A stretch of DNA of 64,000 nucleotides from Rhynchopus sp. YZ270_cl-10 (lineage: Eukaryota), in contig OZ037836.1 of the NCBI GenBank assembly GCA_964035575.1, positions 682,001 through 746,000 of the forward strand. Direction: 5' to 3'. Shown piece after piece: positions 32,915 to 42,149 of the stretch. The notes under the pieces are model-generated. The model was given only the letters and a program-made list of their open reading frames with translations. It did no database searches and was not told the DNA's origin. The translations under genes were made by a program, and so were the position numbers. Each line of letters begins with the position of its first letter. Position 1 is the stretch's first letter.

Positions 32915-33560
32915 GGTGTGCTTGTTCGTCAGACACTTCGGTGATGGTCTCACGAAACGACGCAACGGCTCGTAGATCTTCCACTTGACACAGTCATGTA
33001 GTCCTCCTGAAGATTCTTCAGACAGATATCAAAGCGAAGCTCTCCCGCTCCGGCGATGGTGTGTTCTCCCGACTCCTCAATCGAGCACTGCATAAGCGGG
33101 TCGGACTTCGGCAGACGCTTCAGTCCCTCAACAAGCTTGGGTAGGTCGGCGGGGGAGGAGCACTCCACAGCGACACGCACAGCGGGCGATACAGTGTACT
33201 TCATGTCCTTCAGGGGGTAGCACTCGCTCTCCTTCTCGTCGGTTGGTCGCAGTCTTCACAAATGTTACCACAGGGCACGTCCTCAACACGGCCTCCTGGT
33301 AACGCTCCATTCTGAGCAGGGTACAATCGCTGCGGCGCTGGATGTTCTTCACAGCCATGTCCTTCTTGGTTTCGGATTTGTAGTTGGGACCCCTGGTGCG
33401 TGCCTTCTGTCCGTCCTTGATCTTCCCAGAGAAAGACACGACCGAAACGCGGTGAAATGTGTCTTGTCTGCCGCGGAAACATCTTCGACACGTACATGAA
33501 TAGGGCGGAGGGTGATCAGTGCGACGGGGTCGTAGTTCTGCAGTCCCTGGAAATAGTTGA
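32915..33560 (-). pseudogene. EEF2: Degraded elongation factor 2 (eEF2) fragment, domains II-III
   Basis: Frameshifted pieces MYVSKM...FGRVF, GPNY...[34 protein letters not shown]...[16 protein letters not shown]...[34 protein letters not shown] match conserved eEF2 motifs. Confidence 0.92.
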
Positions 33561-34489
33561 CTGCACGGTAGAAGGTGCAGAAACTTTTCGACATCCGCAC
33601 ACCCCTTTTGGACTTCGGTGCATGTGGCACAGGCTCCAAAAAACCGCTTGCCATCATAGTTGAAAGTATGATGAGGCACACTGTCTCGTGAAGTCGATGT
33701 TGTAGTTTGGCAGGAAACGTAACTTTTTTGAATCCTGTCGTCTGTGTCGAGGACCTTAATCGACGGTACGAAGGAAAATGCCTGGACATCCTTGTGTTGA
33801 AACCATCTGGGCAGTAAAGCCTGTTGATGTCTGACACCGGTGGCCACGCAGGGCAGTCTGAGAGGATGCCGCCTTGGAAGTCGAGGGCGGTTCCTTCACA
33901 GGTCGCCGTTTGCGAGTGTCGCGCTCTGTGCACTTGAGTGGGCTTGGGTGGTCAGATGGGGTGGTCGGAGAAGGGAGCTGGCTGCCACCTCTAGGTACTG
34001 CGAGACAAACTTCTCTGGGGTGCGGGTGATTGTAAATGTACTGTGTCCGTGTTGGCAGATCTGGACAGCACATCCGGGAATCTCCACGTAACTGCTGTCC
34101 TCTGTGTATATCCCAGCATTTGAAGGCCTTTCGAAATTAATGCCAAACCCCGTAGGCCGGATGATGTCGTCAAAAAACGCTGACTGAACCCCTAAGGCTG
34201 ACTCTGGGCTGCGCGCAAAACAGCGTCGTAGAGCACGTTTTTCGCATACGCAGCGCGTGTGGGTGTTGTAACTGGCAGCATCTTCACAGACCAAAACTCC
34301 AAAGGGTGCCCTTCTTATAGGGACTTGAAACCCAAGTCAGCAGAGTGACCTTCCTTTTAGGGACTAGAACACGGCAGACCGGCGAGGGGTGCCCTTCTTA
34401 TAGGGACATTTGTCGGAGCGGCGAAAGAGTGTAGAATCAGGGGTTCCGCTACCGTATAATATTCAATTTGGTTGAGGGTCGAAGGTGTG

Positions 34490-38186: not shown

Positions 38187-39548
38187 CTATTCCTCGGTCA
38201 GGACTGTTTCCTCAGTAGGGCTTGCTGTGGGCATCTCTGCCCACATGCTGTTCCTCTTGACGTCGTTGGAGACCAGGAAGACGTACTTCGTCGGGTTCGT
38301 TGCTGTGGTGTCTTTGCTCTGCTTGGAGCGTTCGAGGCAGAGCAGCGCAAGGACTGCGAGAAGGCAACCGCACACGAGCGAGCCTGCGACTGTGAGCATG
38401 ACCACGTTGTCCACAGGGTTGCGCTGTGTGAAGGTGATCTGCACAGACTCCTTGAACTTGTAATATACCGTATTCTTCCAAGATGTGGCATTTGCAGTCG
38501 ACAACACGAGCAGATCCATCTCGCCCGTCCGAGACTCAAGAAGTGTAAGGTACACGTAACCCTCCACTGTCACCATCTTTGCATTTTGAATCGTACGGTG
38601 TGTTTGCCCGTACACTCCTTTCAAAATTCGATCCTGCAACACGGACAGCCCAAAGGACGTGCTGTACTCTCCGCAGTTGAACACTGCAATGGTCCCATCC
38701 GCGAGAATGCTCACTTCGTAGATGACATCCATGGTGGAGGCTGAGTGGGTAGAGTTTTGTGACATTGTGACTGTGCTGCTGATGTTTGCGACGTAGCAAT
38801 AGAGCGTTCCGGAAGGCCTAGCCGAACTATGGACGTGCTGGTAGACGGCCGCGAACACACCTTGATTGATGTCCCACGAATTTCCGCCGTTCATCGGGAT
38901 TGCCCCAATAGTATTCAAATTCGAATACAAAGCTGTTGACAAGTAATAGACATGAACATTCTCCTGCACACCATCGAGCTCCACGACGTGGACTGCAATG
39001 TGCACACCACCGTGAGTACCACTGCACTTCACACCCACAATCTGCGCAACCGCGAAGTGTGACGCTGACATGCGTGTCGGGTCCTCCGGTGACGCAACGT
39101 CAACGACGAACAGCGCAGTGCCCACCCCAACAAAAAGCATCCCAGGATGGTGTGCGATGAAAACCTCGCCACCACTGCCCGCACCGACGTCGAAGTACCT
39201 TGGGGCATCGTGCACCAACACCACCAAGGCAGACACAGCTGTGTCGTACACAGTCAGCGAGTACACATCGCTTTCGGTTTCACCCACACAGAAGACAAAC
39301 GTGTCCGTCACCCCACTGGCACATTGTTGTGCATATCCACTCCTGAACTGCCCTTGAGGCACAAAGCCGGAACCACTGTACGTGTAAGCAACGTTCGAGG
39401 CGTTCCCTTCCTTTGTGGTGTTCCCATCACCCGGGGTGGCAACAACAGTATAAGGGAATGCATCTGGTGTGCACCCCACCGGCAGCCCCTGCGACAGCAC
39501 TGCTGCAGCAAAGAAGAGGACACTCTCTCTCCGGTGCGGCCACGACAT
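38187..39548 (-). CDS. Uncharacterised type I membrane/surface protein (453 aa), paralog 2, intact
   Basis: ATG of MSWPHRRESVLFFAAAVLSQG (signal-peptide-like) at 39546-39548, downstream of an ...acaacaaacag acceptor-like site. C-terminal TM VVMLTVAGSLVCGCLLAVLALLCL and a short cytoplasmic tail. Confidence 0.82.
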   Translation of the reverse strand: MSWPHRRESVLFFAAAVLSQGLPVGCTPDAFPYTVVATPGDGNTTKEGNASNVAYTYSGSGFVPQGQFRSGYAQQCASGVTDTFVFCVGETESDVYSLTVYDTAVSALVVLVHDAPRYFDVGAGSGGEVFIAHHPGMLFVGVGTALFVVDVASPEDPTRMSASHFAVAQIVGVKCSGTHGGVHIAVHVVELDGVQENVHVYYLSTALYSNLNTIGAIPMNGGNSWDINQGVFAAVYQHVHSSARPSGTLYCYVANISSTVTMSQNSTHSASTMDVIYEVSILADGTIAVFNCGEYSTSFGLSVLQDRILKGVYGQTHRTIQNAKMVTVEGYVYLTLLESRTGEMDLLVLSTANATSWKNTVYYKFKESVQITFTQRNPVDNVVMLTVAGSLVCGCLLAVLALLCLERSKQSKDTTATNPTKYVFLVSNDVKRNSMWAEMPTASPTEETVLTEE

Positions 39549-41216
39549 CGTGTGGTGGGGCAGGGTTTGTCTTCCTGCAGCCCTGTTTCCTGTTTCCTGT
39601 TTGTTGTGGTGTGGAGAATTCATTAGACAAACAGAAATGCAATCAGAAGGAAAACAAAAAGGTAAAGCAACCTTTGTTCCAATCACCCACGCCAATACTA
39701 TCAGGCCTACCAGGCCTGCTGGTGCTTAACTTCTCAAATCAGGCGGGATGACGTGTATTCACCAGAGTATGGCCGGATCCAATACTGAGCCAGGGTGGAA
39801 AACATGTGAACGGGTTGTTCGTGCCTTATCATTCTTCAACACAAAGAGGAAGTCTAAGGTTCCTGGAGCTGAACAGAAAAGAACGGTTCACGAGGTCGAA
39901 GTGACCAGGATCATGATGGTTTGGAGGCTCAAAAGCATCGCAGAAGTTAATGGAAGAAAAAGGGTAATGAGACTGCATAGGAGAGCTTCATATTGAAAAA
40001 AAAGGGTGGTAAAAAGGTGGGGATTCTGTCTCTTTTTTTAGCTAACACTCCTTTGTGGAAACAAGTATTTCAACCTATGCAAAATCAAGCATTGATAGCA
40101 GAGGAAGAGGGGATCAATAAAAATGATCCCATCTTTCTTTTGCAGTATGTTTTGCAAAACGTAAAAAGAAAAAGTAAATGCTTCATGCACAAAGTTGAAA
40201 CTTCAGTAGACTGGTTTCTGACATTAGCCCTGTTTCCTTTTACTTTCAATCCAGGAAACAAGAAAATAGAAAACGACTTCAGGATATGACAGTTAAATGA
40301 AAGAAGGCACTTTTCCGTCTATTGCACCGCAAAAGGTTTGTGTTTTTTCACATGATGAACGTGAGTGAGATGTGTATGTTAGTGGAAAAGCAATACGCTA
40401 AAGCGGGCACGCACCATCCGTCGTTTTCCATTTCTATTCGTCAATGCTTGATAACACACAAAAAAAAAATAAATAGGGGGGGGTCAAGGAGTTGATGATT
40501 CTGGCCAGCCCGCGCGCTCATTAAAAGGAGCCAAAGGACTATCTGTGGGTGTGGGTGGGGAAAACAAAAGGGAAAGTTGGGGTCAGGCACAAACCCTGTG
40601 TCAAAGCAAAAGAGAATGAGGGAGGGGAGGGAGGGGAGGGGAGGGGAGGGGGTGATATCTGAATTCTGTCTTTTTTCAGCCAATTGCAAACAACAACAGT
40701 GTTTCTGGTATGTCGACGGAAGCAACAGGGTTGCACCAAAAACAAAGTTGACTTGAAATACAACAGCCCGCTCGTGAACAGTGTACCTTGGTACAATGAC
40801 CGCACGGTGCGGTAGTCAGCAAAATGACAACCTAAATGACAACCTCAATGACATGTCATAATTATGACAACCCTATAGGTTGTCAGTGACAACCTAGGGG
40901 TTGTCAAATGACAACCTGAGGTTGTCAAATGACAACCTATAGGTTGTCATTTGACAACCTTATGCATGTGAAATGCCTTGCAACAGCCATTTTTATTGGA
41001 AATGTGGGAGGTTGGGGGGTTGGGAGGTTGGTGGTTACCTGTTTGATTGTTGATTGTTGAATGTCCATGCACTGTAAAAATTTATTTAAAAAAAAAGGAG
41101 GAGATGGGGGGGTGATTTCTGTTTTTGTTGATTTCATGATGATTTGGGTCCCTCACCCCCTTTGTAAAAATCCCGCCCATACACATATGCAGGGGTCAAG
41201 TGACTGACGTGCCTGA

Positions 41217-42149
41217 CTAGTGCCATTGAACACTCTCTTCGGAGTCCTCCTTGTTTGCCTCTGTGTCACTGGCCTCAGCAAGAGTCTCCTCAGGATCCTC
41301 AGGAGCCTCCTCAGGAACTTCGTCCTCCCCAAACACGGACATCCATGATGCCCCGTCCATTTTCACAGAGAGTGCGTTGGGGGCCCCCACGGGTATGTCC
41401 ACACGAGTAATTCCCACCTGCACCATCACGGAAGTCTCCCTCGTCGAATCAAGGGACAGAGTGCTGGGGACATCATACGTACCGTCGACCACCCCGATGC
41501 TGGCCCCGATGGCAAGGCGCTCCCGCTTCAACGCAAAGCTCAGCTTGTGACCCTGCAGCGTCGGGTCGGTGCAAAACACGGTGCAACCGTTTTCAATAAA
41601 AATTCGGTGCACTTTTCCACCCGGTGTCATCTTTTCCCCCATCACCGTGATGATAGGCCATACGGAAGCGCGGGGGCCTCTTTTGATGACCCCCTTGGCC
41701 GCCGCTGTCCCTGTTCCCTCGTTGACAATGGACGTGTACAAGCACGCCATGTCCATGTCCCCCAGCGACGCCCCTTCCCGAACTACAAGCGCCAGACGCT
41801 TGTACGCCTCCGTCTTCTTTGCGGCGTCCGATATCCCAGGCAACTTCCGCAGCACGAGTCCGCCAAACACAGTCTCCTTCACTGCCCCTCCGTTCCCTGA
41901 GATGCGGAGGCTGTACACACCTTTGGCAGCATCAGCCTCTGCCCTGTTCTTCGCCTGTGTGATGGTGAATTTTTTGCCAAGTTCAGCTGCCACTGAGCCA
42001 TCATTGGACTTGAAGTCCACCTTGAAACATTTCGAAATCAAGGCCCTCAGTGCAGGGTGACTTAAGGGGGTTGCACCGGCGGGGTTCTTCGCTTTGTACA
42101 CATAAACAGTACAAAAGTCGTTTGCAATCGTCGTCTGCTTGCTTGTCAT
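41217..42149 (-). CDS. Transposon accessory protein (310 aa), possible GNAT-fold acetyltransferase with acidic tail
   Basis: Intact ORF inside the TIRs. VFCTDPTLQGHKLSFALKRERLAIGASIGV resembles GNAT motif A; D/E-rich C-terminus. The ORF is solid, the function is inference. Confidence 0.7.
   Translation of the reverse strand: MTSKQTTIANDFCTVYVYKAKNPAGATPLSHPALRALISKCFKVDFKSNDGSVAAELGKKFTITQAKNRAEADAAKGVYSLRISGNGGAVKETVFGGLVLRKLPGISDAAKKTEAYKRLALVVREGASLGDMDMACLYTSIVNEGTGTAAAKGVIKRGPRASVWPIITVMGEKMTPGGKVHRIFIENGCTVFCTDPTLQGHKLSFALKRERLAIGASIGVVDGTYDVPSTLSLDSTRETSVMVQVGITRVDIPVGAPNALSVKMDGASWMSVFGEDEVPEEAPEDPEETLAEASDTEANKEDSEESVQWH

Follow-up and report, generated by a model that had tools for sequence, protein, structure and literature searches.

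The acquisition of a partner gene by a RAG1-like transposase is central to understanding how V(D)J recombination arose, and a small open reading frame on contig OZ037836.1 of Rhynchopus sp. YZ270_cl-10 raises the matter in a new setting: what does the second gene of a probable RAG1-like transposon do when it does not resemble RAG2? In the window (the whole stretch of DNA that was analysed, 64,000 nucleotides long), this frame, ORF2, occupies 41217..42149 on the minus strand, with 310 codons open from an ATG. It lies 233 bp downstream of the 618-aa ORF1 (42383..44239) on the same strand, confirming in the ORF listing what the earlier note had described as an intact ORF downstream of the transposase.

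Both frames belong to an element of 3,973 bp (40803..44775) that begins with CACGGTG and ends with CACCGTG, its limits being set by the alignment of the TIRs and by contig starts and loose ends in public runs. The left TIR (40803..41348, plus strand, 546 bp) takes in the final 43 codons of ORF2 with its stop; aligned with the right TIR (44264..44775, minus strand, 512 bp), it is identical at 481 of 493 columns, and both begin with CACGGTG. Contigs begin at 40803 in the public runs X1 and X8, and at 40802 in run X3. Loose ends with other flanks gather at both termini, on the left before 40803 (four runs, each with 3-4 contigs) and on the right behind 44775/44776 (1-2 contigs per run); because these flanks differ, copies are present at several sites and the element is multi-copy. 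The near-identity of the copies together with their varied flanks indicates that the element is young.

The window copy is inserted in a high-copy host repeat, which was seen at 40745-40802, 44776-44830 and 46426-46540, the last being a paralogous empty copy. Contigs that leave the window behind 40802 read on as GCTGTACCGGGG (48 contigs in X1, 43 in X6 and 2 in X8, with consensus agreements of 0.46, 0.55 and 1, respectively), and the filled site reads CG and then GCTGCACCGGGG after 44775. From these empty-site loose ends and the filled site, the simplest reading is an apparent 2-bp CG target duplication (left copy 40801..40802, right copy 44776..44777, both plus strand) at this one insertion; flanks of 3, 4 and 5 bp gave no match at the window insertion, the 5-bp pair being GACCG and CGGCT.

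The overlap of the left TIR with ORF2 places the acidic tail of the encoded protein (aa 268-310; 41220..41348, minus strand) within a terminus. The E/D-rich tail reported in the earlier note is indeed present, with 16 D/E among the final 40 aa, and acidic tails recur in five of the six distant relatives described below (13-19 D/E per last 45 aa; P0049 has 6), so the TIR probably grew over an already existing ORF2 tail. According to the TIR alignment, the right TIR carries a copy of the tail codons (36 codons plus stop; 44264..44374, plus strand), which matches a 32-aa cluster (P0051/P0055, recorded on 1 and 12 contigs). Because the 3' end of ORF2 is mirrored in this way, sequence of the kind found upstream of the transposase also points into the element from the left end, where it could give rise to transcripts antisense to ORF2.

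ORF1, the transposase candidate, is a probable RAG1/Transib-like member of the CMCT clade on the basis of language-model features, conserved residues and the termini of the element. In the ESM Atlas, its aa 1-480 retrieved RAG1 clusters at 0.91-0.94, with eight of the ten best named matches in one family; sequence searches gave no RAG1/Transib match, and the PDB returned C2H2 fingers or nothing. Six distant relative clusters share 30-47% identity with ORF1. A candidate catalytic triad, equated with that of RAG1 by eye (the single-sequence AF2 model has a pLDDT of 36), is invariant in the rows covering each residue: D96 in 7/7, D174 in 8/8 and E383 in 9/9. Before the catalytic E, H361-x3-H365 is present in 9/9 rows and agrees with the H(3-4)H motif; where a C(2)C motif would follow the second D, all 8 of 8 rows carry H190-R-S-A-F-C195, with Ser at the first Cys position, and H190 or H207/C209 may substitute for the missing Cys. 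Toward the C-terminus, C2H2-type zinc fingers (aa ~528-616; 42392..42658, minus strand) were indicated by PDB profile matches and by Pfam zf-C2H2_4 and zf-Di19, which were found in eight of nine ORF1 members at E up to 10, the window protein scoring below the curated cut-offs. A PHD finger considered by eye at this C-terminus was dropped, the matches being of the C2H2 type. A search of metagenome, viral and prokaryote contigs with the transposase alignment found no related locus.

The CACGGTG...CACCGTG termini and the CG duplication, the latter from one insertion, agree with the CMCT clade definition of 5'-CA..TG-3' termini and a TSD of 2-5 bp in the available text of PMC12730594. The element departs from the strict 5-bp TSD rule for Transib found in the accessible part of PMC1131882, a rule to which the portion available of 10.64898/2026.08.26.747230 admits exceptions, with TSD size varying.

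The window ORF2 protein is exactly P0010, recorded on 8 contigs and belonging to a cluster of 14 near-identical members, and the gene is still intact in most copies. Nine matches came from a full HMMER scan, which covered 1.84 billion representatives; they comprise six distant relatives (P0045-P0050; 27-34% identity, E 1.4e-22 to 5.1e-6) and three close fragments. Those relatives that have a species name are from diplonemids: Diplonema papillatum, with two clusters and homologues such as KAJ9444679.1 and KAJ9435310.1, and Rhynchopus euleeides, represented by a transcriptome. Searches of Pfam, NCBIfam and PDB sequences with ORF2 and its relatives yielded no significant match, and the ESM Atlas yielded no usable match for ORF2. 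A search with an ORF2-family profile returned four proteins and missed four of its own six input sequences; the family is therefore under-reported in that index. Linkage to the transposase was seen in contig 12 of public run X3, which bridges ORF1 and ORF2, and of the 12 distinct longest-contig sizes in the ORF2 clusters, at least 9 are also found among the 15 listed members (of 19) of the transposase cluster. Among the distant relatives, for which pairing was judged by equally long contigs rather than by reading their DNA, P0047 and the transposase relative P0004 each derive from a 3,867-bp Logan contig, near the size of the element, and P0050 and the transposase relative P0006 each derive from a 7,446-bp ENA contig; P0048 shares its Rhynchopus transcriptome with the transposase relatives P0005, P0037 and P0039. 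ORF2 thus belongs to a multi-copy DNA transposon as its conserved second gene: the earlier view of it as a partner gene stands, with conservation across distant relatives in place of a one-off capture.

The nature of this second gene was approached through its predicted structure. An AF2 model built on a nine-row alignment (7 distinct lineages) has a mean pLDDT of 70 and two domains, an alpha/beta domain (aa 1-146) and an all-beta domain (aa 166-254), separated by a low-confidence linker and followed by a low-confidence tail (aa 258-310); with a pTM of 0.49, the mutual placement of the domains is of low confidence. The all-beta part is predicted to form an alpha-crystallin/HSP20-like beta-sandwich (aa 163-257; 41379..41663, minus strand). 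All 29 Foldseek matches listed are small heat-shock or alpha-crystallin proteins, 20 of them at E <=0.001 and the best at E 1.7e-4, and in a VIA comparison against 48,161 chains the best ten matches are all small heat-shock proteins (sHSPs; Z 8.3-9.3 over aa ~163-263), with CS/p23 domains (Z 7.5-8.0) and further sHSPs below them. The predicted domain superposes on 4fei with Z 9.3 (rmsd 4.0, 87 aligned) and on 4ylb with Z 9.0 (rmsd 3.0, 88 aligned), and its best matches in a viral structure library were also sHSPs. At the sequence level, none of the seven ORF2-family proteins matched Pfam HSP20 at E up to 10.

The N-terminal domain is a probable winged helix (aa 2-103; 41841..42146, minus strand), with RFX5 as its closest listed match (8zjr_M; VIA Z 7.2, rmsd 3.0, 80 of 82 target residues). 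Since this is a single match below the caution line of Z 8, the assignment as a winged helix is held to be probable and the more specific RFX type is held with moderate confidence. The region is basic (16 K/R vs 7 D/E), and the Pfam RFX DNA-binding domain was matched by none of the seven family proteins at E up to 10. Four residues, R82, G219, P228 and G246, are invariant in the family; we take R82 to fit the RFX-wing pattern and the other three to fit that of sHSPs. Likewise, G-x-Y-x-x-x-Y-x-V-P (G219-P228) presumably corresponds to the sHSP strand-7 signature without the usual Arg, and the V-x-M/V/L string behind the last strand resembles, in our assessment, the IXI motif. The predicted architecture of ORF2 is therefore a winged-helix domain for DNA binding joined to an alpha-crystallin/HSP20-like domain. 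RAG2 consists of a Kelch propeller plus a PHD finger; the model instead holds a winged-helix-like domain and one ~90-aa beta-sandwich, and no kelch or PHD Pfam match was found in the ORF2 family, in agreement with the earlier statement that the protein is not RAG2.

A predicted DNA-binding domain calls for sites, and candidates were found by sequence scanning of the termini. Four X-box-like palindromes, GGTTGTC-N3/4-GACAACC, lie at 40878..40959 in the left end and four at 44619..44700 in the right. The left TIR holds 11 occurrences of TGACAACC or its complement (7+4) and the right TIR 9 (4+5), on both strands; this sequence is absent from the 2,915-bp interior of the element and occurs once in the 35 kb of flanking window scanned. 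The half-sites each differ by one mismatch (1+1) from the X-box consensus GTNRCC(0-3N)RGYAAC, as it stands in the available text of PMC5752003. An equally good fit was obtained in 2.8% of 200,000 random palindromes with spacers of 0-4; because the comparison was made after the RFX match and the spacer was widened from 0-3 to 0-4 (a spacer of 3 is found in only one palindrome out of four at each end), the resemblance serves as a lead only. It would be equally natural for the C2H2 fingers of ORF1, rather than ORF2, to read these palindromes. By eye, no convincing RSS nonamer was seen in the element ends.

Combining the fold, the sites and the linkage to the transposase, we infer that ORF2 may be a TnpA-like accessory factor that would bind the palindromic repeats at both ends and oligomerise there, a proposal to which we assign an even chance. 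The basic winged helix would read the GTTGTC/GACAAC half-sites, with four palindromes per end, and the HSP20-like domain would dimerise and multimerise, the protein thereby coating and bridging the two ends. Coated ends could then help the transposase to assemble on the CACGGTG termini, regulate the transposase promoter, or both; ORF1 starts 24 bp inward of the right TIR, so this promoter must lie in or beside that TIR. The acidic tail would be a disordered activation or interaction region. Precedent for the separate steps can be found in the portions available of three sources: transposition of En/Spm requires TnpA, which binds subterminal repeats (PMC2613891), TnpA regulates its own element (10.64898/2026.08.24.746577), and the plant proteins ACD15/21 drive multimerisation on chromatin (PMC10651127).

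Among known systems, the element is close to En/Spm (CACTA), which encodes TnpD and TnpA and which, according to the accessible text of PMC2613891 and PMC12730594, shares CMCT-type CAC...GTG termini, subterminal repeat arrays in both orientations and, as a second gene product, a non-catalytic protein for which binding to these repeats is proposed. In those parts of the sources, TnpA is made by alternative splicing and no HSP20 domain is reported for it, whereas ORF2 is a separate, single-exon-looking frame; the present element also differs in its apparent 2-bp TSD and in a RAG1-like-looking transposase with C-terminal C2H2 fingers. With Transib and RAGL elements (ProtoRAG, AanRAGL), it shares a RAG1-like core by language-model features and a heptamer-like terminus (CACGGTG is 6/7 identical to CACAGTG), and with AanRAGL it additionally shares a tandem arrangement of two genes (PMC9435367). 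In contrast to this group, the partner is not RAG2-like, the TSD is 2 bp rather than 5, the TIRs are ~530 bp long and overlap the partner gene, no clear nonamer is present, and H-R-S-A-F-C stands in place of C(2)C as the Zn motif. ESTA and Oriex likewise combine a RAG1/Transib-like transposase with a dinucleotide TSD, but the available text of PMC12730594 and 10.64898/2026.08.26.747230 describes TA duplications in fungi and insects, compared with CG here, and the ESTA cargo as a TET/JBP gene, compared with a predicted winged-helix/HSP20 gene here.

Outside transposons, the plant ACD15/21 and IDM2/3 proteins, in the source portions available, use the alpha-crystallin domain as a multimeriser on chromatin, as is proposed here, and RFX factors combine an RFX-type winged helix, predicted here with moderate confidence, with X-box palindromes, which those at the element ends resemble. 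Both are host genes encoding separate polypeptides, whereas ORF2 is predicted to unite the two folds in a single chain encoded by a transposon, and no sequence similarity of ORF2 to plant ACD proteins or RFX factors was detected. Two-gene CMCT/RAG-like elements are already known, including the tandem AanRAGL (PMC9435367). No paper describing a winged-helix/HSP20 transposon gene was found in a literature search that excluded Repbase Reports, subscription journals and bioRxiv supplements. One supplement of PMC9435367 has no entry for Diplonema, Rhynchopus or Euglen-, and the main text of the D. papillatum genome paper (PMC10161547) contains no occurrence of 'Transib'; the available part of the supplement to the latter paper lists four ORF2 relatives as hypothetical, species-specific gains.

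A broader and more tentative proposal, which we consider to have appreciably less than an even chance, is that a diplonemid-associated RAG1-like lineage took on its own second subunit independently of RAG2, namely an RFX-type winged-helix/HSP20 fusion that would read X-box-like palindromes at the ends and pair them via sHSP-type oligomerisation. If this is true, the element would represent a new CMCT lineage, as well as a first example of transpososome assembly by means of a chaperone fold. The element looks like an independent solution to partner-gene gain in a distant eukaryote group and extends RAG1/Transib-like elements to euglenozoans. Additionally, the analysis offers a fold and a testable role for a family annotated as hypothetical and species-specific in D. 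papillatum, and an element this young may serve in biochemistry or as a genetic tool for diplonemids.

Several other roles can be weighed against the accessory-factor reading. The strongest of these, although unlikely in our judgement, revives on grounds of its own the anti-silencing/chromatin factor mentioned in the earlier note, and holds that ORF2 acts mainly as an anti-silencing or transcription factor that binds the ends and recruits or opposes the host chromatin machinery via its HSP20-like domain and acidic tail. The Foldseek and VIA evidence for the fold serves this explanation as well as the accessory factor, and the accessible portions of three papers supply context, with plant ACD proteins working in silencing and anti-silencing complexes (PMC10651127), TnpA and VANC being sequence-specific activators of their cognate elements (10.64898/2026.08.24.746577), and D. 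papillatum encoding DNA methyltransferase and RNAi homologues (PMC10161547). However, no chromatin-reader or enzyme domain is predicted in ORF2. Because TnpA does both jobs, this explanation overlaps with that of a TnpA-like factor.

An improbable alternative is that ORF2 takes the place of RAG2 through protein contact, as a dedicated transposase subunit or chaperone (an HSP20/CS-like client binder) for which DNA binding would be secondary. The closeness of the CS/p23 co-chaperone domains to the sHSP scores (VIA Z 7.5-8.0) is compatible with such a role, and the tandem two-gene layout of AanRAGL offers a parallel (PMC9435367). A spliced fusion of the two proteins would also be permitted by a possible acceptor, the AG behind a pyrimidine tract at 42177..42178 (minus strand), which lies 27 nt upstream of the ORF2 ATG and in frame; judged from the letters, it could be a trans-splice acceptor or serve splicing from ORF1. 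Co-folding of ORF1 with ORF2 aa 1-272 gave a score of 0.00, which says nothing either way on binding, as alignments were unused and the partner fold is uncertain. A subunit or chaperone role would, however, give no account of the repeat arrays or of the basic winged-helix-like domain. The window protein and four of the six distant relatives have G at position 223, which points away from an ordinary chaperone; we take this position to be the site of the canonical Arg in sHSP strand 7.

That ORF2 is a host gene picked up as a passenger, without a role in the element, is a highly improbable reading. The expectation that homologs always accompany the transposase was upheld in part: two of the six distant clusters are paired with a transposase by an equal-sized contig and one by transcriptome, but no transposase partner for the other three (P0045, P0046 and P0049) was found among the records returned, and the search for ORF1 relatives returned none from D. 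papillatum, although the index in question had missed four of six of its own query sequences in the ORF2 profile search. These three unpaired clusters speak for a passenger. On the other side, ORF2 is intact in most copies, the two D. papillatum clusters are multi-copy, with 10 and 12 contig records, and ORF2 relatives of ~30% identity are paired with transposases of ~45% identity. Moreover, no single-copy conserved host family for ORF2 appeared among the 1.84 billion representatives.

The GNAT-type acetyltransferase suggested in the earlier note can be given almost no credence, since a local P-x-x-Q-G string is set against an unconserved motif A, a strand-turn-strand in the model and alignment of the region with sHSP sandwiches. 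The supposed motif, FCTDPTLQGHKLSFAL (aa 192-207; 41529..41576, minus strand), departs from V-x-P-x-x-[RQ]-G-x-G by a T at the V position and a K at the last G, and no match to this pattern was found in any of the seven ORF2-family sequences; the looser (Q/R)-x-x-G-x-(G/A) occurs in two of the seven, at unrelated positions. Q199 is replaced by C, T, V, T, E and V in the six distant relatives, while the hydrophobic strand positions nearby and R209 are conserved in the alignment columns. GNAT motif A sits between a strand and a long helix. In the model, FCTDPTLQGHKLSFAL forms strands E191-199 and E202-209, a beta-hairpin of the HSP20-like domain, and there is no helix beyond aa 146. The structure prediction that had been proposed as a check on the GNAT fold thus matched the region to small heat-shock proteins; no GNAT entry was among the 29 Foldseek and 50 VIA matches listed, an absence that by itself does not exclude the fold.

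The surroundings of the element in the window include several further features. Adjoining the transposon is an inverted repeat (44832-45957) with perfectly matched arms of 542 bp around a 42-nt loop, possibly a foldback or MITE-like repeat; very many contigs cover its left arm. A eukaryotic LSU rRNA fragment (46577-47150, plus strand) and a 5S rRNA-like match of 40.6 bits (39674-39780, minus strand) were also detected. A 478-aa ORF (38187-39623, minus strand) without a Pfam match has a likely signal peptide and a C-terminal membrane anchor, and a broken eEF2-like sequence (32950-34073, minus strand), of which an 84-aa piece matches eEF2 at E 7e-31, is probably a pseudogene. Together, the eEF2 and LSU rRNA fragments mark the host as a eukaryote. 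An uninterrupted ORF of ~8,020 aa (891-25010, minus strand) has a signal-peptide-like start, a GC3 of 0.79 and 14 RTX calcium-binding repeat stretches near its C-terminus (Pfam E 1e-77), and has the look of a giant protein that is secreted or sits at the surface.
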